Source of the DNA: Cyanidioschyzon merolae
Taxonomy: Eukaryota
DNA: 64,000 nucleotides
Strand: one strand, 5' to 3'
NCBI GenBank assembly: GCA_000091205.1
Contig: AP006493.2
Shown here one piece after another: positions 9,212-60,999 of this stretch (position 1 is its first letter; every line of letters starts with the position of its first letter). The translations under genes and the position numbers were made by a program. The notes beneath the pieces were generated by a model. It was not told the origin of the DNA. It worked only from the letters and a program-made list of their open reading frames with translations, and made no database searches.

Positions 9212-9513
9212 CGACTAAAGTCGTTCGCGTACGCATGCATTTCCAGTGAGAAATCTCTTTCTCGTTGCTGCACGAGTGATCGCCCGTCAATTGCACAGAG
9301 TCCGACTTCTGACTCCCGTAGACTGTCTAGCGTTGAGCGCATCGAGCACAAGCGCTCAATGTCTTCCACAGAGACGAGGCAAAGCTCTTATCATTCCAGA
9401 CACCAACCTCGCCAGTACTAGTAACTCAGTGCTCCGCATTGTTGCGCTTAGATATCACAACGATCGTAGTGGCACGATGCTGCACCCCGGCGTACGGCGC
9501 AGCGGACACGCAA

Positions 9514-9682
9514 GGGAATTCCCTCCAGCGGGATGATTTCGGCGCATATGCATCTGCCAAGGCGATGCTTCGAACAGCTGAGCTATTAGGGAATTCCCTC
9601 CAGCGGGATGATTTCGGCGCATATGCATCTGCCAAGGCGATGCTTAGAACAGCAGAGCTATTAGGGAATTCCCTCCCGCGCT
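9514..9682. repeat. 75-bp tandem repeat (2.2 copies) containing GGGAATTCCC and GCATATGC palindromes; upstream of POR
   Basis: The unit GGGAATTCCCTCCAGCGGGATGATTTCGGCGCATATGCATCTGCCAAGGCGATGCTTCGAACAGCTGAGCTATTA recurs at 9514, 9589 and 9664 (partial). Confidence 0.85.
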
Positions 9683-10559
9683 ATGCTTTCATTGGTTCGT
9701 CAGAGCCTTTCCATTGATTATATATTCCATATTGCCGGACCGATATTGGCTTTCGTGAAAGCGTCCATTATGCTGAGAAATATCTGTACGTTCCATCGCT
9801 TTTGCTTACTCTCGGCTGTTCTGGTCGTTTCATAGTTTCTTGCGTGCGTAGGTTATCTGTCGTGAGCACCCGCCGTAGCCTCTCTATCGCGTTGCGTAAG
9901 CACGCTGGAAACAGAGCAGCTCTTGCGTACCACTGGGCGCGTTGGAAGAGGCTTGGGTCATGCTACATGGGGTCAGGGAGATATTTTTTTCTTTGGAGCC
10001 TCCACGCGGCTCTTGCATACCACTTGCATGCGGTAGCGTTAAACGGTGTACTATTAGTCCACCGCGACGATGTTGACGCCCAGACGCAGCATGCCCGCTG
10101 CTAGTTCCAAGTTCAATTGCGTTTCGGAGGAACTGCCCAGGTTCCCCTTATCACTCTCCACTGAAATTTACACGGGGGCAGGCCGATAGATTTTCTCGGC
10201 TCGCAGACCTCCCACCTAAATGTAACACTGGACCATACGCGAAAACATCTTCCTTTTAAAGTTTACACCAGGTGGCGATATTACTCGCTATCCTGTTTTT
10301 GGATATTGGTTAGCTTTTTTTCTCTGTCGTGCGTCTTGGTAACGCATCGCGAAATCTGGCCGCCACGTCACACTACGTGCGTCTTGCCGATCAACGGAAA
10401 CGCTTTAATGACCTCTCCTGGAGCGACTGCTCTATCGGGGCCACTTGTTTTTGCGATCGAATCGTAGCAAAGTATAGTTTTGGCTTCAATGGCGTTTCAT
10501 TCTTCAAGAAAATGTATTAAACTTATTTTCGCCGTTCAAAGCAGAAGCGTCCACTCAGT

Positions 10560-12728
10560 TTTTCTCCCAAAAAACTTAGACTTATGTACTTGGAGGTAGT
10601 GGGTTTGGTTTGGCCGGTGTTCCCGGATTTCAGAAAGAAACGAGACATATTGCGTAGCGAAGAGGGTCAGGAAAAGAAGAAGAAGCAACATGGGGTGGCA
10701 TTACATCGACGGCTGCAATAGTGACGTCTGTACGACGAAATGGTGGTGGAATCCTATATTCTCCAACATATCAATGATCCGTACGACTGAATGTTGCGAG
10801 ACCCTATCAGAAACCGTGCCGGTTCGTACGCCAGGTATATTTGTACCTTCTCTTTAGGACTGTGGCTTTTGGAGAGCGAGCTGCATTGGAACGTAACGCA
10901 CATCGCAAAAGTGATATTTCCGGAAGAAATTTTCCAAATGACTTTCATCAACCACCTGATTGTTTTTAATGGGAAAACATCGGAGATAAATGAGCGAGTG
11001 CATGCCTTCCTTAAAAATAACGCCAAATACCGCCTCAGCGGTGCTGGACACCGGGGTGACGCAGACATTTACGCATACAGGGCAAAGAGGTGCCTCACGA
11101 ATGTGAGGAACCATAAAATGGCAAACCTCGATTGTTGAGTAATACGGGCCGTCTTTGCGCTGTACCTGGGCCTATTTCGCGAAGCAATGCTTGCAATCAT
11201 CGATGGTATGAAGAACGATCGCCAGCATGAACAGGAGATCAGACTCGTCGACAAGAGGACATCACGCAGGAGAAAGAATGATGCTTTTGTTATCCGCGCC
11301 ACTATTGTAAAACATCGCTCGGTCTTGGGGCATGTCAACCGAAGAGAAAATTTTCAGATATTTGAAAAGACGAACATAGGTATTACTTCCTCATCCTGCC
11401 CTGCTTTATGTTTTCGGACCGAGACCTCCACCGCAGGGCCGACATTGAGCAGAGTGTGGAAAAATGACGAGTGCGAGAAACGACATTGAAGTCTTCTCCA
11501 GATGCGCTTCAATGTCGGTCGGTTATGCGCGTTCAAGTCACATTTTGTGAATATCGACCCCATAGTCCTTTTGCATCTTCAGGATAGAGATCTATCCATA
11601 GCTCGATGTAATCAACAAATAGGTCTCCGGTGAAGATCGGGACGCCTACGAGAAGAATATCTTCGATTTCAAGCGTCCCGAACCGGCCAAAAAAAGGTTA
11701 TTCACTGGAACAATCGATCTCGATGTGGCGCACATATGTGTACACCATCAGCGGTTGAAGGCAGCTCGTCCTATCCCGTCTTCGTTACGGGCGTTGCCGA
11801 AGAACGAACACAGGTTGACGGGCTATGGAACGTATAAGCCCCATGAAAACCACTTTGGCGTCGGCCTTAGTCCCTGTAGCACGAATATCATAACCATCGC
11901 TGTTCCCAAGCGAAGGGAAGATTGCACTGACGGCACCTTACGCCACAAACATATGCTTCTGCTGAGGTTTTCGAGAGAGAGAGATACTATCGAGAATCCG
12001 GTATAATGAATGCAAGGAAGAAGATCGTTACGTGGAATGTAGGAATGAAGGATCACCTGGAGGCTTTGAGCATGGTGACGAGCCGATGAGCGGACATTCA
12101 AGCTTTTCTGAAATTCATGGAAGTTGGGGTTGCTCATTCCGTGGCGCTGTAGGGCGAGTATACAAAGCACCGCTGGGCACGTTTGCGTATGAATCTGTGC
12201 CGTGGTAAGCATCACGCATTCGCGAGCTTTTTCAATCGATTGAACGCCTTGAAAGAGAATCAAGTCAGAGGCTCGTTGTTACATATGGTGTAGGGAGCTG
12301 GGCTCCGAAAAAAAAAAGGACTACACCAGCTCCAGCGGCAGGAATGTACAAAGAATGCGCACTGTGTTTCTCTACGATACCTGTAGGTGAGTTCCGAACA
12401 TCGTATACACACCACGAGTTGGGATGTACTCTTCAGAAGATGGAGATGGAAAAGTGCCCGCGGAGTCGTCATGATATAAAAAAGTAAGGGACAGCTGACG
12501 GGAGAGCAAATGGAAAAGAGGGGAGAAGTTCGTGGACTACTTGCATTAGTAAGTACGACTACCATCGGCAAGAAACGTATGGAGTTCGCGAACCGAGTCT
12601 TTAACGCTGCAATCAATCCACGGAGATGTGCGGGAATAGACAAAAGACTCCCAGCGTCGACACGAGAAAACATTGTTGGACAACCTCTTAAACTGGAACT
12701 ATATGAGAAAAAATGGTACCCACAGTAG
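10560..12728 (+). pseudogene. TnpB/Fanzor-like RuvC nuclease reading frame, copy 1 (multiple frameshifts and stops)
   Basis: Basic stretch (EEGQEKKKKQ), then ...RLYDEMVV..., then the segment homologous to copy 2 (WNVTHIAKVIFPEEIFQMTFINHLI ... HRGDADIYAYRAKRCLTNVRNHKMANLD). RuvC-I-like position SPCSTNIITIA. Zinc-finger-like MYKECALCFSTIPVGEFRTSYTHHELGCTLQKMEMEKC (12344-12480). RuvC-III-like EFANRVFNAAINPRR (about 12585-12630), with the expected Asp replaced by Val. Confidence 0.5.
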
Positions 12729-12890
12729 GTGGCCGGTCGGAAAAGACGGGGAGGCGTCTGCACGTCAGCTAGAGATTTTTGGTCTAGGGCGAGTTTCTCG
12801 CCAGTACTGTACACTGCCGGCAGCAACGTTTTTGTTTTGAAAGGTGTTTGTTGTCGTCGTCGGGTGCGGCGGTCGTACGAGACGTTTCGG
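12729..12890 (+). ncRNA. Candidate omega-RNA scaffold region (conserved non-coding tail of element copy 1)
   Basis: The non-coding sequence just after the stop codon is conserved between the two copies at a level similar to the coding sequence. In TnpB/Fanzor systems the guide RNA scaffold overlaps and extends beyond the 3' end of the ORF. Confidence 0.25.
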
Positions 12891-14005
12891 TCTCAGAAGC
12901 TCGAGCCGACGCTTCCAAGACACTGCAATACCGTTCCGGTTTTGAAGCATAACCACGATAGCTGCGTATGGAACGTTTCGGTGCAAGTTTGCGGAAGGCA
13001 GGGCTTCCGAAGGAGCGCTGCATCAGCGCCTGTGCTGCATAGAGCGAAACTTTGTACCAGAATTGCTGGGACGCGAGAGGAACGTCAGAGAAGCTGGAGG
13101 CACATTCCTGGTCACTGGAAGCGCTGACGCGACTCGGGCGTTTCGGCACGATTTCGGCTTTACCGCACTGAAGCGCTTGTGCAGCCGCTCTCAAGGCAGA
13201 AGCTGTGCCATCATACCTACCACAGGGTATTCGGTTCGTTCCACTTGCATCGTTAGGTCACTGTTCGTACGTCGCTTTAAGGGTTTTATTCGTCGCCCAT
13301 GCGTGCTGATGCACACTTCCGGCTCGTGTTTTCCAGATCCATACGCATAGAGCAAAGTCTGTTACGGTCATACTCGGAAACTAAGCCTTCGGCGCCGCGC
13401 CCAGGTTCCTGGAGCGTTGCGATGCCGTCCAGCCAACATCAGTGAACGTTAAATCATGGCATACTTTTATCCTGCGGTTTACGATGGTTGACCTGAACCA
13501 GGGTATCTCGGGCCAGGCGCGATACATATCGGCATCCGGGTAAGCGTACGTTATGCCGTACCAGACCCGCAAATTTCACCAGCTTTCATCCACGCATCGC
13601 TTTGGAGAATTTTGAGTCTGTTGATTTGATCCTTGTTCGCTGTTGCGGATGCGAACTCCATCACGTCCGGTATCCATGACACGACTAGCAGGTTTCAATG
13701 ATGATAGTAGGCGAACGCTACTCTGCAGTTGCAATTCTGGTGCCACCTTGTCCTTTAGCAATGCTGTCCATTTGGAACAAGCTCGCCGAGATGGTTACGG
13801 ACGCTCCCCTCCACACCTTTTCTACGGTGCCAAGACCTACCAGTTTGGCATAGGTATCCAGCATATCTCAGTCCTCCTTGTTCATCCGCTTATTTTGAGT
13901 ACAGACCGAGCACGCTTGTGCAGAGCCCGCACTTCGACGAGGCATTTGATTAACGTCCCTGTAAACGATCCGCATCCAACGCGTTACCATGCGCAGGCAA
14001 CATGC

Positions 14006-15070
14006 TCAAGATGCTTTCTTCGGCGTGCTCTGGAGTGCCTCTATACTGGATTGGAGGTCTTCTTTCTCGTCACTTTCCATGAACGGCAGTATTTGTAGTA
14101 CTTCAACGACACCATTCCGACCTAGCACACAAGGCAACGACAAGAATACATCCGCCGACTCGAGGCCTCGCAACGAGCCCGCATGCGTCGTTATTGGCAG
14201 CACTTTGCGCCGATCATGCACAATCGTTGTAACGATGCTTCCAACAGCGCTGCCAATGGCCCAGTTGGTGTAGCCTTTCAGCTTAATGACCTCGTAAGCC
14301 GCGGCTACAACTTGCTGATGGACACCTTTCACCAGATCATAGAATGCTGTGGACGCGCTCGCAGCGTCGGTCATGCGCTCGAAGCATGTTCGCAACGGCA
14401 CGCCACCAACCGTAATACCACTCCGGTACACGAACGAGGAGTCTCCGTGCTCGCCCAGTACCATGGCCTGGACGGAAGCGGTATCGATGCCCAGCCGCTG
14501 CGCCAGAAGTGTGCGGAAACGCGAAGAGTCCAAATATGTCCCTGAGCCAATCACACGTTCGCGGGGCAAGCCACTCATCTGCCACGCTAGATGTGTCAAT
14601 AGATCAACGGGGTTACTCACAACCAACAGGATTGTGTTCGGCGAATACTGCACCAGGGGCGGAATAATGCCTTTGAACAATGCGGCATTGCGATCCATGA
14701 GCTCAAGACGACTTTCTCCGGGCCGCTGACGCACACCTGCCGTTATAATACATACTGCTGAATGTGCTGTATCCTCGTAGGACTCGGCAGCCCGGATGCG
14801 GGTGCTATAGAACGCACCTCCATGCTGCAAGTCCATAACTTGACCCTTGAGTTTGTCCTTAAGAACGTCCACCAGTACCAGCTCACTACAAATATCTCGG
14901 GTCAAAATATTATACGCGCAAGCAACGCCAACGTCGCCAGCTCCAACCACGGTGATGCGGACGGGGTACGAACGTGCAAGCGCCGCACCCGGCGTGTCGA
15001 TCGCAGGCGAGACCTCCCCAAAGAGACTTCCCTGAAGCTCAGCCGCTGCCTCGTCGATCCCTGACGTCAT
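14006..15070 (-). CDS. LDH: L-lactate dehydrogenase (LDH/MDH superfamily, LDH-type Gln at the specificity position)
   Basis: RITVVGAGDVGVACAYNIL...LVDV...GQVMDLQHG (Rossmann fold). ITAGVRQRPGESRLEL (Gln102 and Arg109 equivalents). VSNPVD. LGEHGDSS (catalytic His). Ends in TGA. About 30-aa N-terminal extension. Confidence 0.85.
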   Translation of the reverse strand: MTSGIDEAAAELQGSLFGEVSPAIDTPGAALARSYPVRITVVGAGDVGVACAYNILTRDICSELVLVDVLKDKLKGQVMDLQHGGAFYSTRIRAAESYEDTAHSAVCIITAGVRQRPGESRLELMDRNAALFKGIIPPLVQYSPNTILLVVSNPVDLLTHLAWQMSGLPRERVIGSGTYLDSSRFRTLLAQRLGIDTASVQAMVLGEHGDSSFVYRSGITVGGVPLRTCFERMTDAASASTAFYDLVKGVHQQVVAAAYEVIKLKGYTNWAIGSAVGSIVTTIVHDRRKVLPITTHAGSLRGLESADVFLSLPCVLGRNGVVEVLQILPFMESDEKEDLQSSIEALQSTPKKAS

Positions 15071-16334
15071 TCCAAAGAGCGCAGTTCCACGATTTGCTTC
15101 CTTGCGAGACAGATCTTCGAAAAAGTCCGACTACAGGTTTTAGATCGCCCGAGCTGCGGTGCAGGGTTGTTTCCAGCACTGGTGCCGAGATCGCTACAAA
15201 CCCGTGATCGTTTTGTTCTCCAGCACTATAGGCCTCGCCAAAACTAGGTACAGTGCTCTTTGATAACACAGCTGTCTGATCCACGAAGGTATTGCTTTAA
15301 GTCAGAGGGAACGCCCGAGACTGAGCGCCCTGAATAAAGCATGCTATCCGTTGAGGACACAAAGATGCACTTGAGGGCTTTCGCGATCGCCCAGAAGCGC
15401 CTTCCGGAGATTCGATCCAGAGCGATGCGCGTCTCGATGACGAGTCCGCCTCCGGAGCGTTTTTTTCTTTTTGATGAAAAAACGTTTGCATTGACCATGC
15501 ATCCCAGAATTCGGAACGCACGATGGCTTCCGGGGATATCTCGATCATAGTGCACCTGTCCTCAAGTCCCATTACCCATACTACCTCTCTGATATACTGG
15601 TCGTTTCGTATGTTCTATCGAGCGCCGAGCCTGTTGTGAGCACCCGCTGTAGCGCTTATACCGCTGAAGCAGGTGCTGCACAGAGACAGAACGGCTTTGC
15701 CATACCACTAAGGGCGTCCGCTCGAGGAATGATTCACCTGAACCGGAATCAGGGCTATTTGTCATTCTGGGAACATGCAAAATGCGCAGACAGACCTACT
15801 ACCTGCGACAGCGCGAAGTGCTGTACTAGGATTCCACTGCGACCAGGGCGAGGCCCAACGCAGCATCCTGTGCATAGTCTCAGGATGAAATGCGCTGCGA
15901 ACGAGCTACGCAGGTCTTGCAGCAGCAGCAGCAGCAGCAGCGGCGGCCACTTTAGAGGCATACCGAGCTCTAGCCCGGTAGACTCGACCGGCTCGCGGGA
16001 CCTTCCGCCTCGAACATAAGCTTCCGATAATACGGCGATCTATTTCCCCTTAAACGCTTATCGTAGAGCGGGAAAAAATTTTATATCGTTTCTTGTAAAT
16101 TGTAAGTCACTGTCCTTTTTCCTATATGGCGCGCTCGATACGTGCATCTCCAAGTATGGCACTTAGGAGACACGACGCGTGTGTCGCCATTGAAGAGAAA
16201 CGCGATCGTGACGACACGTTATCTTGTTGTTCTAACGGGCAAGTTGTATATCTGTGGAAGTCGTAACAAATCATAGTTTCCAGTTCGATTGTGTCTCAAC
16301 CCTCAAGTAAACATATTCAATTGATTTCTCGCAG

Positions 16335-16342
16335 TATATAAT
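16335..16342 (+). promoter_or_regulatory. TATA-box-like motif upstream of the Fanzor-like ORF (copy 2)
   Basis: TATATAAT in an AT-rich stretch 52-59 bp 5' of ATG 16394. Confidence 0.3.
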
Positions 16343-16393
16343 AGAAGGGTTCAAAGAGCGTTCTTTTTCACAGAAAAAAATGAAAAGAAAGTT

Positions 16394-18568
16394 ATGAAAA
16401 AGCAAGTCGACGATCCTGGAGGCCCAGTGTCGCCTGCTGCCAGAAATAAAAACAAAAAACAGAGCCGAGTCCAGAAGAACAGGAAAAGAAGAAGAAGCAA
16501 AAGGGGAGGCCCTAAGTCGAAGGCGGCAAGAAAGACGACTGTACGACGAGATGCTGGTGAAAGCCTGTCTTCTTAAACATATCGACCATCCCTACAAGGA
16601 AAATTTGCGAGACGCTATCGAAAAACGTTTCGATTCGTACTCCATGAGTATTTTCAAGGCGTCGTCAAGACTGATGCATTTGGCATGGGAGATGTACGAG
16701 AACGTGGCGCACTTAGAAACGGTCGAGATTCCGGACGATTCTTTCGATAAGACCTTTATTCGACACCTGATGCTTGGCACAGCGGAAACGCGGAGGGAAA
16801 ATGTGCTAGTGCATGGCCTTTACGAAAAACATCCCTTTTACAGGTTCGAGGGTACTCGATACAAGCGTGACCGGGATATTTACATGTACGGAGCGATGAA
16901 GTATATCACGAACCTGAAGAATCCTTTGGCAGCGAACCTCGAACGTTTCATGATACGCACCGTGTCTGCACACTGCCCGGGCATCTCTCGCAAAGGAGTA
17001 TGGGCGATTATCAATGGCATCACGAACGATCGTAAGCGTGAAGATGAGGTTGAATTTGTCAGGGAGAAGGCGTCATGCAGGAGTACGAATGAAGCTGCTG
17101 TAATGCGTGCGGCGATATAATAGCACCGCGCAATCTTGGGGTTGCCGAATCCAACAGAAAGGGTATCAGATTTAAAAAACGATAAGGAAAGATACTATTG
17201 CCTCATCCTGCGATATTTTTTGTCTCTGGACCGAGGGCTCCAACGCGAGGCAGAGATGAAGGTGAGTTGGAGAAAAAATGAAGAGTGGGAGAGACGGAAG
17301 GCTCTGCTAATGGGAAAGTGCGTCAACGTCATACCAATGTGCAACATCAAGTCACATTTCGTGACTATCGACTCCAGCGTCCTTTACGGCATCATGACGG
17401 AGATCATTCCGGAGTTCGATGTAAACAGGAAGGAGTTCACCTGTGATAACCGGGAGACGGACTGGAAGAATAGCTTCAATTTCAAACGTCTCGAAGTCAA
17501 CAAACAAAAGGTATTCACTGGGATGATCGAATCCGATGGATTAGCCATGTGTATACACTATCGGCGGTTGAAGACAGATCGTCCAGTTCCGTCCTCAGCG
17601 AAGCATGAAGATGAGAAGGATATGGGTCCTGCGACGAAGAAAGTGCATGGGAACGACTTTGTCGTTCGCGCGCACCCTGGAAACACGAATATCGTAACCA
17701 TCGCAGCACCCAAGCGTGCGGAAGATGGTACTGACGGCAACTTGCGTCAGAAAGACACGCGTCTGTTGAGATTCTCGAGAGCGAGATTCTACCGAGAATC
17801 GCGTATAATGGATGCAAGGAAGAAAATTAAGACATTGAATGCAGGATTGCGGGAGCGCCTTGAAGCTAGAAGGGAGGTGACGAGCCGTGAAGCAGACTTT
17901 GTAGCTGTTCGGGAGTTCATGGAAGTTCGCGTTGCTCATTGGGAGGCGTTGTGGAAAGAATACGCCAAGCCGATGCGAGCTCTTCTGCGTCCGAATCCAT
18001 ACTGTGGGAAGCAGCGTGCATTTGACAACTTTTTCAATGAGTTGAGCTTCTAGAAGGAGGACAAATCACAAAGGCTCGCAGTGGCGTACGGAGCAGGGCG
18101 CTGGAAGACCAGGAAAGGGACTACGCCACCTCCAACGACAAGAACGTTCAAGGAGTGCGTAAGACGTTTCGTTACGATACCAATAGACGAGTTCCGTGCC
18201 TCGTATACACACCATGAACTGGGGTGCACACTTCAGAGCGTGGAGATGGAAAAGTGCCAACGGAGCCCTGAGGATATAAAAAATACGGACCGCTGACAGA
18301 AGAGCAGCTGGAAAGTATGGCGAAAGTTCGTGGGCTACTTGCATTAGTACGTACAATCAATGGCGAGATACGTATGGGGTTTGTGAACCGAGACTTTAAC
18401 GCCGCAATCAAGATAAGGAAATGTACGGTGACGGAGAGAAGACCTCCAGAGTGGACAAGAGTGAACTTCAATGGACAACCGCTCAAAGTTGAACTGTATG
18501 AGAACAAATTGGAATCAGTAGAGGGGTGCCTGTCGAACAAGACTAGGATGCGTCTGCACAGCTGCTGA
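16394..18568 (+). pseudogene. TnpB/Fanzor-like (OMEGA-type) RuvC nuclease reading frame, copy 2; interrupted by in-frame TAA-TAG (17118-17123), TAG (18054-18056) and a frameshift near 18297-18316, or alternatively by unusual introns
   Basis: N-terminal basic NLS-like segment NKNKKQSRVQKNRKRRRSKRGGPKSKAARK (16394-16576). Two long ORFs in frame, 16551-17120 and 17136-18053. RuvC-I-like position VRAHPGNTNIVTIAAP (17673-17699), with His where the catalytic Asp of G-I-D-x-G is expected. Possible RuvC-II region ADFVAVREFMEV. Zinc-finger-like segment KECVRRF...YTHHELGCTLQSVEMEKC (18081-18296). RuvC-III-like GFVNRDFNAAIKIRK (18377-18421), matching the TnpB/Cas12 D-x-N-A-A-x-N-I signature. Confidence 0.55.
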
Positions 18569-18685
18569 AAACGTACTGTCGAAAGCGTGTTTCACGCTTC
18601 AACTGTACACCGCTGGCGGCAGCGTTTTTCTTTTGAACGGCGTATTTCCCGAAGGTCGTCACGAGAGCGAGGACTTCTATACAGC
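18569..18685 (+). ncRNA. Candidate omega-RNA scaffold region (conserved non-coding tail of element copy 2)
   Basis: Same reasoning as for 12729-12890. Conservation stops just before the UFD1 start codon. Confidence 0.25.
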
Positions 18686-57040: not shown

Positions 57041-58117
57041 CTCAGCTTTGATTACTTCGTGATCTGCCGTTTGCGCGGCTGACAGTGCACCATCTCGCGC
57101 ATGCAGCTCTGTTTCGCACCGTTCTTGTCTGTCGGTTTTTCAGCATGCACCCGCACTCGTAGCGCATGTACGTCGTGCTGAACGCACCGACAGGAAGCGT
57201 GCGGCATAGGCACCTGAGCTTATTGGACACTCCCGTCGAAGCATGAGCAGGTCCGCGTCCTTTGCGCGCTTCTGAACGTCCAGCGTCATAGGCTGCCGCC
57301 AGGAAACGATTGGACCTGCCGGGGATTTTCGCTTGGAATTCACCGATAATGCCGGTGAATGCGAGTTTCCCGCCTCTGTAGAAGCGACACCGTTTGCGAC
57401 CTCAGCGTAGTACCAAGGACGCCCACCAAAGACCCTCCACACGATGCATTTGGTCGCTCATGGACGCTCGGAATAAATTATAGGAAGCATAACCCTCGGC
57501 TCCATACGGTGCCTGGAGCGTCGACTTGGGTCCTGATGCCGCCACCGCTCCCCTTGCTGTTCGTATGCCTTCTAGCGCCCATCACGTCCGACTGCCGCTC
57601 ATACCGAGCGATTGAAGAGGTTGAACAGGTTCATCCGCTTTCCGTTCAGGTTGTGACCTCCGCCATCTTTCAATAGATAATCGGTGGCGGTGATGATTTC
57701 CCCCCAGCGGGGATCGACGCACGGCACGTGACCTTTCCCTTCATGTGCCCGGATCCGTTGGATATGCGTTTCGTGGCTCGACGCAGGTTTCGGATTCACA
57801 AGCGTCACAAAGACCGTCGAGCTTGGTATCCCGTCGGTCGCCGTCGTCCCTGGAAACGAGAAATCTTGAACGAGCGCCGCCAGTGCTCTTCGTGTGGCTG
57901 CTCGGACGCTTCAGGCTTACTCGCAGAGAGCAGCGGCACCGCACAGAGGAGGCCATCCAGTACACAAGTGTCTACTGACGCGCGATTCACCTTGATCTGG
58001 CATACCGAGACCACGTCGAATAGACGCGTGACGTGCACCGGACGGTCGGATCCCGAGATGGGGGCTGCTCAGCTCTGGAAGCACCTGTCCAGAGAAACGT
58101 GGTAGCACAGGAGCCAA

Positions 58118-58121
<4 letters not shown>

Positions 58122-58182
<61 letters not shown>
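58122..58182. repeat. (CAGG)n microsatellite (about 15 units), the reverse complement of the (CCTG)n at 31199
   Basis: aggcaggcaggcagg... for about 60 bp. Confidence 0.9.
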
Positions 58183-60999
58183 TGCGCTTCAGCCACTTTT
58201 CGGATACGATATCTGCAGGTGCGACGCCGAGCACTAAACGATATCGTCGGGCGATCTGGGGCGATTCTGGCTCTCGTTGCTGCATTTTTTTTCGAAGTCG
58301 ATACCAGTTGGAGCTCTTGCGTATCCAGCTCGTCATTTGCCTCCATCGATATCCAAGAATCCCGTCAACCTATCTCCCCTGTTCTGGACCACTGAGGTGA
58401 GGCTGCGACATGCAGAGGGCGCGCTGCATGGGGCGCTCGACATTGGCCGGCATGTGGTTTTTGAGGTTGGCCCCAGACATGCCGGCACCTGCGCTGCGGA
58501 CGTTCTCATTACAGACGCCGGCCTACGAAGCGTCACGGCATGCTGGGTGGCGTGTTCTCAAACCCTGGATGCCACGACCAGGCCGTATTGCATCTTGTTT
58601 TCTGGCCATCTGTTGTCGCACGAACGTTTCATCGAAAGGTTATGAGAGGAATGTAGACAACTGGCGGCCGTGCGTCCAGCCCTCCGATGAGCAGATGCTT
58701 GACGAGGCGCGTCTGGGCGAGCGCAGCTGGGCGAGCCTTCGTTGAGTACGAAGCTGCGCGATCCTGAATGGCGTCTCGCATCTCACGGCTTGACAGATTC
58801 TCGCGGGTGGTGCATTTCTTGGGGAAGCGGTGGCATCGCTTTGAGACAGATCTTGTCGCTCCGACATCTGTTCCTCCCCGTCGCTCCTTACCCTATTCTC
58901 GGAAGGCTCTTTCTCTGGTTCGCCCGGTGGTCGCTTTTCTTTCTCTAGTTCCTGGCAGGCGCCCTGCATTCCATCTCTATCGAGCATATCTGTATGTCGT
59001 TCTCCCAGTGGAGACTCAGGCGCACTGGGTGGAAGGTTGCACTGAAACTCGCCCTTTCTATGTATGTATCGACTACTCCTCAAGCACCTCTCCATCGTCG
59101 TATCCGCCGAGAGCTCGCCCACGGACGGAAGCGCGCCTCTCAGCTCCCGTCCGGGCACGAGCAGCGCGGCGACGCATCAGCTCATGGCTTGCAAAGGTGG
59201 AGAATGGCTTCTCCAAGAACGGTGTCACAGATGCGGACGGCTCGTCGAATGAGTCGTGAGCATCCATCCATGGTTCGACAAACTGAGCAGGCTCCTTCAG
59301 CTGGACGGAACCAGGACGAATAGGCTCACGCAAACATCAGCTCAATGCCAAGCTCAGCTGCACAATCCGTGGCCGCTCTTGCGTGACAGAGGGCGACCTT
59401 GTCCAAGAGCGTATCAGAAGAATGTGGAAAGGAGAAGCCGAAAAGCGCTTCGACGCATCGTGAGGAGTTGAGTGATCACGGCTCTTTTGCTATTTGGTGT
59501 TGGCGACACCGAAGCCTCGCACCCAGGCCAGCTGGTGCCGTCCTGCTCGCTAATCTCCTTTGTAGGAATAGCGATTTGTCCCTCTTTGAGTAGGCATTCA
59601 CAGGTGTACCATCCCTCCAGATTCGAGTCTCAGCGATTGAGACGAACACCTCACGCTCCGGTAACAAACGTCCACGCGTCCATACGAGATCAATAGAGTG
59701 TTGTTTATTGCACGACAGTCTTCACGACGAGCGTTTTTCTCCTGTGTCTATCAGCGTGTCTTCATCAGCATTCGTATGAACCACACGGAAGCCTCACATC
59801 CTATGGCTTCCTTCGCCGTGTTCCTAGTAGAATGCATGGAATTCAATGGATTATCCAGGACACAGTCGTCTTGGTGGCGTTCGGTGACTTCTGTTTCGGG
59901 TGCACGATGCTCAGGACAGAGACGAGAACAGGAGCGCTTCATCCACTTGCGTATTAAAAAGTATCCGACATGTACGAGAATGACGATTTTTCGCAAACTA
60001 GCAGTCACAGCACCAAGTGTGCACGAGATTCTACTCCAATGTACAAAATATATTCCTTTTATAGTATACCTGCGAGAAAGACAATCAAATACGAATCAGG
60101 CGCTCTGGCACTAGAATCTCAGACTTCGATACACTTTGTCACAGAATACTAGGAGAGATGCATGCGATGACGTTTCCCCACGCACACAGAGATTATCATT
60201 CGAAGCAAGTGCCAGATTAAAATTCGAGACTGGGGTGTCCACGCTGTCTTGCCATTCGATTTTTCCAGCCATTTTTCAGAGGCACAGCCTCGGCATTCGA
60301 GGTGCAACGATGACGGCATGGGAATTCATACGTAGAGTTAGAATTCTCAGTCGTTATTTAGGAGAAGCATCTTCTACGCTGCGTCATGGGAATTCGTCAC
60401 GACACCGGACTGTCTATCTTTCGCGAAGCCTTCGAACAAGTTTTCATAGCATGACCGATGCCATTATCCAGTTCGTACGTACAGGTCCCTACTATTCTTC
60501 TTACCTCACATGCAATATGGTCAAACCACGCATTACTCAAGTTTTCGATTTTTCTGTTCGACGGCTACTCGTGGGCGCAGCATTACACGCAGGGGCATCG
60601 CTGACGAAAGCGACTCGGCGTCGTCACTCGAAGACTTGCTCACAAGCTCATGCCACAATTCACGTTACGTCTCACGCAGAGTAATCGATGCCAGTCGGAA
60701 CACAAATCCTCCTCTCTATTTTGCCATTCGCTAAACGGGATTCGATCGCAGCATGGTGCCTCCGACTAGCTACGCTCTCAGAGGATCCCGTCTCTTCACT
60801 TTCCTCAGAGAAGCTTTGTAGAGTCTGACATGAGTCATTACGGCGATTATTTTTCGTGAATCGCGCGTCACTGCTTTGCACGAAGGGGTCATACGAGGTT
60901 AGAAATATCCCAACGTGTCCTCCTGCCTGAAGTTTACTTCCTGCATTTGTTTCATCATGGAAAAACATCGCATGCCACAAATCCTCCTTCAAATGCAGC

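Follow-up and report, generated by a model that had tools for sequence, protein, structure and literature searches.

The window analysed here, a stretch of 64,000 nucleotides (nt) from Cyanidioschyzon merolae (contig AP006493.2), contains two paralogous Fanzor-like copies in direct orientation, one on each side of an LDH gene, which were recognised by repeat searching and pairwise alignment. Five proteins specified by the window have exact counterparts in C. merolae 10D, namely BAM80408 (LDH), BAM80409 (UFD1), BAM80410 (= CMK009C), BAM80415 and BAM80418, and from the low locus-tag numbers we infer that the window is the left end of chromosome 11 of this strain. Copy 2 occupies the interval between LDH and UFD1, both of which are plain, uninterrupted open reading frames (ORFs) in the standard code. 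The two copies share 69–80% nucleotide identity over paralogous stretches at approximately 10.5–12.85 kb and 16.3–18.64 kb. The complete elements, at about 3.17 kb each, exceed the span 10560–18568 given in the original prediction (Table 1). Alignment of the window with 80 family loci shows homology from about 15465, or for a subset from about 16167, up to a sharp stop at 18643–18646, where a conserved non-coding tail of about 75 nt ends. The family loci fall into two 5' boundary classes, at ~15468–15569 and ~16167.

Only one Fanzor1 family, CMe-1A, is given for C. merolae (Bao and Jurka 2013, Mobile DNA 4:12; PMC3627910). The same source describes approximately 150 copies that match a consensus of about 3 kb at about 80% identity, without terminal inverted repeats and with target duplications given as undetermined; the 5' 635 bp are common to a short element, TE-N2_CMe, and intact genes are reported in the genome. 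On the grounds of species, protein family, length, divergence and the sole Fanzor1 listing for this species, both window copies can be assigned to CMe-1A, and thus to a family already described in 2013, the comparison having been made with the published description. The 5' module of copy 2 is probably the TE-N2_CMe-like part of that description. A repeat search revealed no inverted repeat joining the element ends of either copy.

Protein searches recovered 55 and then 215 related fragments, all of them metagenomic, and a DNA scan of metagenome contigs gave 303 related stretches; 80 of these loci were analysed. The second protein search, which was profile-based, yielded mainly further pieces of this family, and neither named nor distant relatives came to light. 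The majority consensus of the family loci is one open frame of 756 codons with the Asp–Glu–Asp (D/E/D) triad of a RuvC active site. Compared with other family members, copy 2 shows a median identity of 80% and copy 1 one of 70%.

The shared orientation of the copies and their near-constant spacing of 5.8 kb raise the alternative of a tandem segmental duplication of one block of about 5.8 kb in place of two insertions. The homology is, however, limited to the element, the flanks (LDH on one side, UFD1 on the other) being unrelated, and the copies are only about 69% identical, each standing nearer to other family members than to its neighbour. Since the constant spacing follows from the equal length of the elements, we regard such a duplication as very unlikely, and two independent insertions of CMe-1A as the better account of the arrangement.

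The Fanzor-like identity claimed by the original prediction was borne out by profile comparison. A profile of 30 relatives, anchored on P0001, matched exactly three entries in the PDB, all of them Fanzor1 proteins: 9cf0 (E = 8.7e-23), 8gkh (E = 1.4e-16) and 9cer (E = 1.8e-13). A narrower profile of 15 sequences matched only SpuFz1 (8gkh; E = 5e-4). Within the 30-sequence alignment of diverse full-length relatives D484, E656 and D725 (P0001 numbering) are invariant. CMe-1A is, moreover, listed as a Fanzor1 family (PMC3627910). Pfam and NCBIfam scans of the single ORF pieces and of the joined copy 2 protein gave no matches, nor did a single-sequence search of the PDB; homology to Fanzor emerged only with profiles. 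An exhaustive HMMER search of public data with the family profile returned 2,968 clusters (50% identity) at E <= 1e-3, many of them full-length proteins of 600–700 amino acids in which the D/E/D triad is invariant. Numerous diverged relatives of full length combine a proper start with the triad (P0131, P0200, P0202 and P0207), and the proteins P0200–P0345 carry no annotation in the tools used. The Pfam model PF07282 (Cas12f1-like TNB), for the zinc-ribbon domain that separates RuvC-II from RuvC-III, is passed by a distant relative, P0055 (34.4 bits against a cutoff of 26.3), while P0202 and P0207 score 18–19 bits, under the cutoff. In the CMe-1 clade and the window copies PF07282 gives no score, and the paired CxxC motifs are absent. 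The family encodes a Fanzor1-type protein with an invariant RuvC triad; the window copies, judged by the lesions described below, are relics of such genes and not functional Fanzor1 genes.

Copy 2 lacks a continuous ORF of about 600–750 codons, since its body contains three stops and one frameshift and its leader is broken. The leader (16394–16550) has two frame changes and one stop, in A- and G-rich tracts, which the original prediction had not included; its ancestral, continuous form is present in L009 and P0049. From position 16551 there are 189 open codons, then the adjacent stops TAA TAG, then 305 open codons up to a single TAG. Both long segments are therefore real, as is the TAA–TAG pair at exactly the position predicted. 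The second stop had been placed at 18054–18056; it exists, 3 nt away at 18051–18053. The frame change claimed "near 18300" likewise proved genuine, and is a 1-nt deletion about 20 nt earlier, where the family sequence AAAAAAGTAC is replaced by AAAAAATAC. Between the second stop and this deletion the frame is open, and the final segment continues in another frame to a TGA (18566–18568).

Two length-variable features of the family frame were observed in this part of the alignment. An A-tract about 18 codons into the frame (window 16440–16470; loci L005–L085) differs in length from copy to copy, so that only some members (e.g. L009 and P0049) have the ATG and the body in one frame; the tract is a frameshift hot spot. 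Directly upstream of the RuvC-I strand there is a tandem unit of 75 nt, or 25 amino acids (KHEEKKEAxPATQEVxDNDLVVDA), each ending with a near copy of NDFVVGAD, which is present in one to approximately six units among family members (L005, P0023, P0011); copy 2 has one unit (17596, a gap relative to the family).

Copy 1 is more severely damaged. Relative to the family consensus frame it has seven premature in-frame stops, a TAG near the normal stop position and about 9–11 frameshifting indels, in agreement with the further frameshifts claimed for it. The sequence GTAAGG after DIKK, proposed earlier as a candidate intron start, was rejected as such, being the aligned family codons for K-Y-G (AAG TAC GGA) in which TAC has mutated to TAA.

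Table 1. Positions in the window of the two CMe-1A copies and of the features recognised within them.
Feature	Position	Strand	Basis or remark
Copy 1, whole CMe-1A element relic, ~3.16 kb, older and more decayed	9690..12850	+	Ends set by homology to family loci
Copy 1, remains of Fanzor1 frame (MVVESYIL... to terminal TAG)	10740..12772	+	Three-frame translation and tblastn matches, frames 1, 2 and 3
Copy 1, RuvC-I motif GVGLSPCSTN	11857..11886	+	Ser (11869–11871) in place of catalytic Asp; consensus VVGADPGNTN
Copy 1, RuvC-II motif VGEFRTS	12383..12403	+	Glu kept
Copy 1, RuvC-III motif NRVFNAAINP	12591..12620	+	Val (12597–12599) in place of catalytic Asp
Copy 1, right end, conserved non-coding tail, terminal hairpin eroded	12773..12850	+	3'-end alignment; right-end motif match 12799–12817
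Copy 2, whole CMe-1A element relic, ~3.18 kb, younger	15465..18645	+	Coverage by 80 family loci
Copy 2, 5' non-coding module, only in some family members	15465..16167	+	Two 5' boundary classes
Copy 2, N-terminal leader, family ATG (MKKQVDDPGG...) and basic stretch, now over three frames	16394..16550	+	
Copy 2, body of Fanzor1 frame, three stops and one frameshift	16551..18568	+	Three-frame translation
Copy 2, adjacent stops TAA TAG	17118..17123	+	Family and orthologue L087: CAA GAG (Gln-Glu)
Copy 2, RuvC-I motif VVRAHPGNTN	17661..17690	+	His (CAC, 17673–17675) in place of catalytic Asp
Copy 2, stop TAG	18051..18053	+	Family Leu in ...LSALKED...; common to all orthologues
Copy 2, RuvC-II motif IDEFRAS	18183..18203	+	Glu kept
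Copy 2, 1-nt deletion (frameshift), window strain only	18279..18282	+	Extra G present in L086, L087 and L088
Copy 2, RuvC-III motif VNRDFNAAIKI	18383..18415	+	Asp (18392–18394) kept
Copy 2, right end, conserved non-coding tail	18569..18645	+	Right-end motif match 18595–18613

In neither copy is the catalytic triad intact, the residues being His/Glu/Asp in copy 2 and Ser/Glu/Val in copy 1; the replacements of the RuvC-I Asp and the contrasting state of the RuvC-III Asp in the two copies are just as had been claimed. The RuvC-I Asp is present in 78 of the 78 other CMe-1A loci, and most of these also keep the Glu and the RuvC-III Asp. The defects of active site and frame are private to the window copies. 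The alignment with relatives that carry the canonical D/E/D residues, suggested along with the original prediction, thus marks the two copies as ordinary relics.

Copy 2 could be followed into other strains. Three metagenome contigs (L086, L087 and L088) carry it at the same LDH–UFD1 site with 97.4–97.8% identity; the between-strain comparison covers copy 2 only, the syntenic contig ending before copy 1, of which no orthologue was found. The RuvC-I His is unchanged in all three, with no variable site there. At 17118–17123 L087 has CAA GAG, while the window and L086 have TAA TAG. All three contigs possess the G that is absent from the window at 18282, and all three have a stop at 18453 (TGG to TAG) which the window lacks. 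The stops and the frameshift of copy 2 are polymorphic among strains. The differences between strains within 16700–18520 are distributed in blocks, with a different contig deviating in each; the block 17051–17199, for example, has eight derived changes in 150 nt, including both adjacent stops, and is shared by the window and L086 and missing from L087. This pattern suggests haplotype recombination, or conversion from another copy, and not uniform mutation.

These contigs also bear on the idea that some or all of the lesions are assembly or sequencing errors and that at least copy 2 is intact. In its favour, the deletion at 18282 occurs in the window sequence only and lies beside a run of six A residues. 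The TAA–TAG pair, however, recurs in the independent contig L086, the TAG at 18051 and the His codon are found in L086, L087 and L088 alike, and if the doubtful frameshift is set aside there remain three stops, a broken leader and a missing RuvC-I Asp. Such errors could explain at most the single deletion at 18282, and an intact copy 2 is a still more improbable alternative than tandem duplication; genuine decay of the copy is the reading followed below.

The selective history of the copies was investigated by dividing their substitutions into those shared with other family members and those private to one copy. The shared substitutions are enriched at third codon positions, copy 2 having 78/49/95 at positions 1/2/3 (p = 7e-4) and copy 1 105/92/166 (p = 2e-6). 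The private substitutions are flat: copy 2 has 21/21/18 (11 synonymous, 49 non-synonymous) and copy 1 has 53/58/36 (15 synonymous, 132 non-synonymous). They affect about 3% of sites in copy 2 and about 7% in copy 1. Since shared changes show the third-position enrichment and private changes do not, purifying selection on the family protein acted before insertion and not after it. The ratio of non-synonymous to synonymous rates (dN/dS) is 0.51 for copy 2 against the consensus and 0.54 for copy 1 against the consensus, intermediate values such as selection followed by decay is expected to give; between the two copies, a comparison proposed with the original prediction, it is 0.56.

The comparison between strains was of the same character. 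Within the copy 2 frame 64 sites are variable, distributed 24/18/22 by codon position, and the 17 synonymous changes (against 47 non-synonymous) do not differ from the expected synonymous fraction of 0.22 (p = 0.36). In the flanking genes third-position changes account for 7/9 in LDH and 7/10 in UFD1. The relic ORF has diverged by 1.98%, against 0.85–0.89% for the neighbouring genes, and the fastest divergence within copy 2, 3.46%, is that of its 5' module.

The long open segments had been thought unusual for neutral decay, and this was examined by simulation, the private changes being reverted and the same number re-applied at random. Decay of about 3%, as in copy 2, introduced 2.3 +/- 1.6 new stops and left a longest open segment with a median of 326 codons (5–95% 186–479); for copy 1 the median was 185 codons (range 110–289). 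Longest segments like those observed, of 305 codons (copy 2) and about 200 codons (copy 1), are what simulated neutral decay typically leaves, and that part of the original prediction is not supported.

Most family members end in a terminal hairpin, which folding of individual sequences resolved into two sequence variants, both of which pair: CGTTCGA-CTTT-CGAACG and ACGTTTTTC-TTTT-GAAAGACGT, with stems of 9–10 bp (last ~30 nt of L005–L085; window 12820–12850 and 18615–18645). RNAalifold found only two short stems with almost no covariation in the right end and missed this hairpin, because the two variants pair in different registers. At the right end of both window copies the strong family hairpin is lost or eroded: copy 1 has none (fold z = +0.85), and that of copy 2 is a mismatched mixture of the two variants (fold z = -0.35). 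Rfam had no match to the right end, its sole match being a sub-threshold, weak C/D-box snoRNA-like one (snR75; 27.5 bits against a gathering score of 40, E = 0.019) across the copy 2 5' boundary (15420–15510, plus strand), which is probably due to chance. About 10 nt beyond the hairpin are T/G-rich in many loci, and may belong to the terminus or reflect a target preference. A rolling-circle transposon of the Replitron or Helitron type is a possible reading, in view of the hairpin and of the missing inverted repeats and target duplications; no Rep gene was found, and the Replitron paper records no such proteins in red algae.

These results bear directly on whether one or both copies have been domesticated, that is, kept by the host as a catalytically dead, RNA-guided DNA-binding protein. 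For copy 2 such a role might be read from its two open stretches, from a dN/dS against the consensus below 1, from its retention at one site in several strains, and from the loss of the RuvC-I Asp alone, the type of change expected of a dead binder. The dN/dS below 1 stems, however, wholly from substitutions shared with the family, and the private and between-strain changes, with neither codon-position bias nor synonymous excess, look neutral. No strain has a continuous frame, the stops differ by strain, and the open stretches fit the neutral expectation. The right-end hairpin, presumably a component of the guide RNA, is eroded, and divergence of the region is about double that of the neighbouring genes. 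We consider domestication extremely improbable, less so only than rescue of the frame discussed next, and the non-catalytic role entertained in the original prediction is accordingly given up in favour of its other suggestion, that the copies are probably fossils: the private substitutions look neutral in both, as do the between-strain changes of copy 2, whose lesions are polymorphic.

That the copies function as genes, with introns, read-through, recoding or programmed frameshifting to overcome the stops, has next to no probability, for although Fanzor genes of other eukaryotes often contain introns, and in many copies the family ATG, beside the A-tract, does not share the frame of the body, each stop replaces an aligned sense codon of other members (CAA GAG to TAA TAG; Leu to TAG), so that the sequence around it is coding and not intron, the stop sites vary among strains, LDH and UFD1 alongside use the standard code without interruption, the A-tract is merely variable in length with some copies in frame, and copy 1 would need the rescue of about 10 frameshifts.

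Both copies are thus, very probably, dead, independently inserted CMe-1A members that are drifting neutrally, neither of them making a protein and neither co-opted by the host. An active CMe-1A element encodes Fanzor1, a TnpB/Cas12-like nuclease whose RuvC active site is split (Asp...Glu...Asp). By comparison with work on TnpB and SpuFz1 (PMC10432273), this protein would be an RNA-guided endonuclease cutting double-stranded DNA and may help the element to persist; an omega-RNA would be transcribed from the right end of the element, its guide being read from the flanking DNA, as in SpuFz1 (PMC10432273). The source lineages of both copies were under purifying selection on the protein, which is the reason why the copies are still gene-like and differ from each other mostly at third positions. 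Since their insertion beside LDH they have drifted neutrally; stops, frameshifts and substitutions in the active site have accumulated, and the hairpin at the right end has been damaged. Copy 1 is the older: its private changes amount to about 7%, and it has seven premature stops and approximately 10 frameshifts. In the younger copy 2 private changes amount to about 3%, the body is interrupted by three stops and a single frameshift, and further lesions lie in the leader. The mechanism itself is absent from the window copies, which lack both a frame and a complete active site and whose right end is damaged.

Several points weigh against this account. The count of private substitutions hinges on the sample of 80 sequences and on their multiple alignment. 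The mosaic differences among the orthologous metagenome contigs could partly be a product of recombination or assembly. An AlphaFold2 model built from a 55-sequence alignment was too poor to use, with a mean predicted local distance difference test (pLDDT) of 41.7 and a predicted template modelling score (pTM) of 0.28. Finally, among the 80 metagenome loci no member is intact from ATG to normal stop, the nearest being L005 and L007, which have a 722-codon frame from ATG to stop and the D/E/D residues but end 36 codons before the consensus does. For strain 10D, fully intact copies are known solely from the statement of Bao and Jurka (2013; PMC3627910).

A third, much older Fanzor1-like relic was observed at 57138–58636 on the minus strand. 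Its amino acid identity to P0054 and to the consensus of the family is 25–32%, and it is distributed over three frames and contains several stops. As Bao and Jurka list a single Fanzor1 family for C. merolae, it may be the remnant of a second, more ancient Fanzor1 lineage. Solo right ends and 5' modules were searched for elsewhere within the window and none were found.

Among the other features of the locus, the LDH gene between the relics (14006–15070, minus strand) has paralogues of at least 90% identity on two other C. merolae chromosome records (BAM79100 and BAM78829), which is consistent with duplicated chromosome-end regions. The 226 nt directly upstream of LDH (15071–15296) are present once in the window and as 2–4 tandem repeats about 249 nt apart in related-strain metagenome contigs (L001–L004). 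A 75-nt tandem repeat at 9513–9690 (2.4 units, 97% identical) terminates exactly at the 5' end of copy 1.

The two copies are best annotated as CMe-1A (Fanzor1) pseudogene relics in subtelomeric chromosome 11, and not as candidate genes or as a nuclease-dead RNA-guided protein. The family having been known since 2013, the significance beyond correct annotation is slight. The locus does offer a clean example of how decayed copies in an old repeat family can be told from domesticated ones, by splitting inherited from private substitutions and by comparing orthologues between strains. It is the CMe-1A family, and not the window copies, that may be of interest for heat- and acid-adapted Fanzor nucleases, given its many near-intact members, invariant D/E/D residues and conserved right end. 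With near-intact D/E/D members in natural populations, purifying selection and a conserved right-end hairpin, the family is possibly still active. It is a long shot that a living CMe-1A could supply an active Fanzor1 from this hot-acid alga, with the relic right ends transcribed as guide-like RNAs that are used in trans and aim at the adjoining sequence, in the case of copy 2 just upstream of UFD1.

Among known systems the closest to the window copies is CMe-1A as published, with which they share the genome, a length of about 3 kb, the lack of terminal inverted repeats, about 80% identity, a single Fanzor1 ORF, and a separate 5' module in common with a short non-coding element. The window copies are broken and have lost active-site residues, whereas some published members are intact; nothing essential differs otherwise. 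The solved Fanzor1 proteins, those of Parasitella parasitica (Fz1, 9cf0), Spizellomyces punctatus (SpuFz1, 8gkh; Saito et al. 2023, PMC10432273) and Guillardia theta (GtFz1, 9cer), are remote relatives. Like the family they have a basic N-terminus, and their catalytic residues follow the same order: Asp in RuvC-I, Glu within a D-E-F-R-T-S-type motif in RuvC-II, and Asp within an N-R-D-x-N-A-A motif in RuvC-III. The CMe-1 clade differs in having HHELGC...C in place of the paired CxxC zinc-finger cysteines, CMe-1A lacks inverted repeats, which in SpuFz1 elements are 30 nt long (PMC10432273), and the window copies, unlike the solved proteins, are non-functional. More distant again is bacterial TnpB (IS200/IS605, e.g. 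ISDra2), the ancestral family of Fanzor. CMe-1A has a eukaryotic host and no TnpA partner, and no Pfam TnpB model scores above threshold on the CMe-1 clade. The split RuvC site is nevertheless common to both. The TnpB guide RNA derives from the right end of the transposon, and this end terminates in a hairpin (PMC10432273); CMe-1A members possess a conserved hairpin at their right end.

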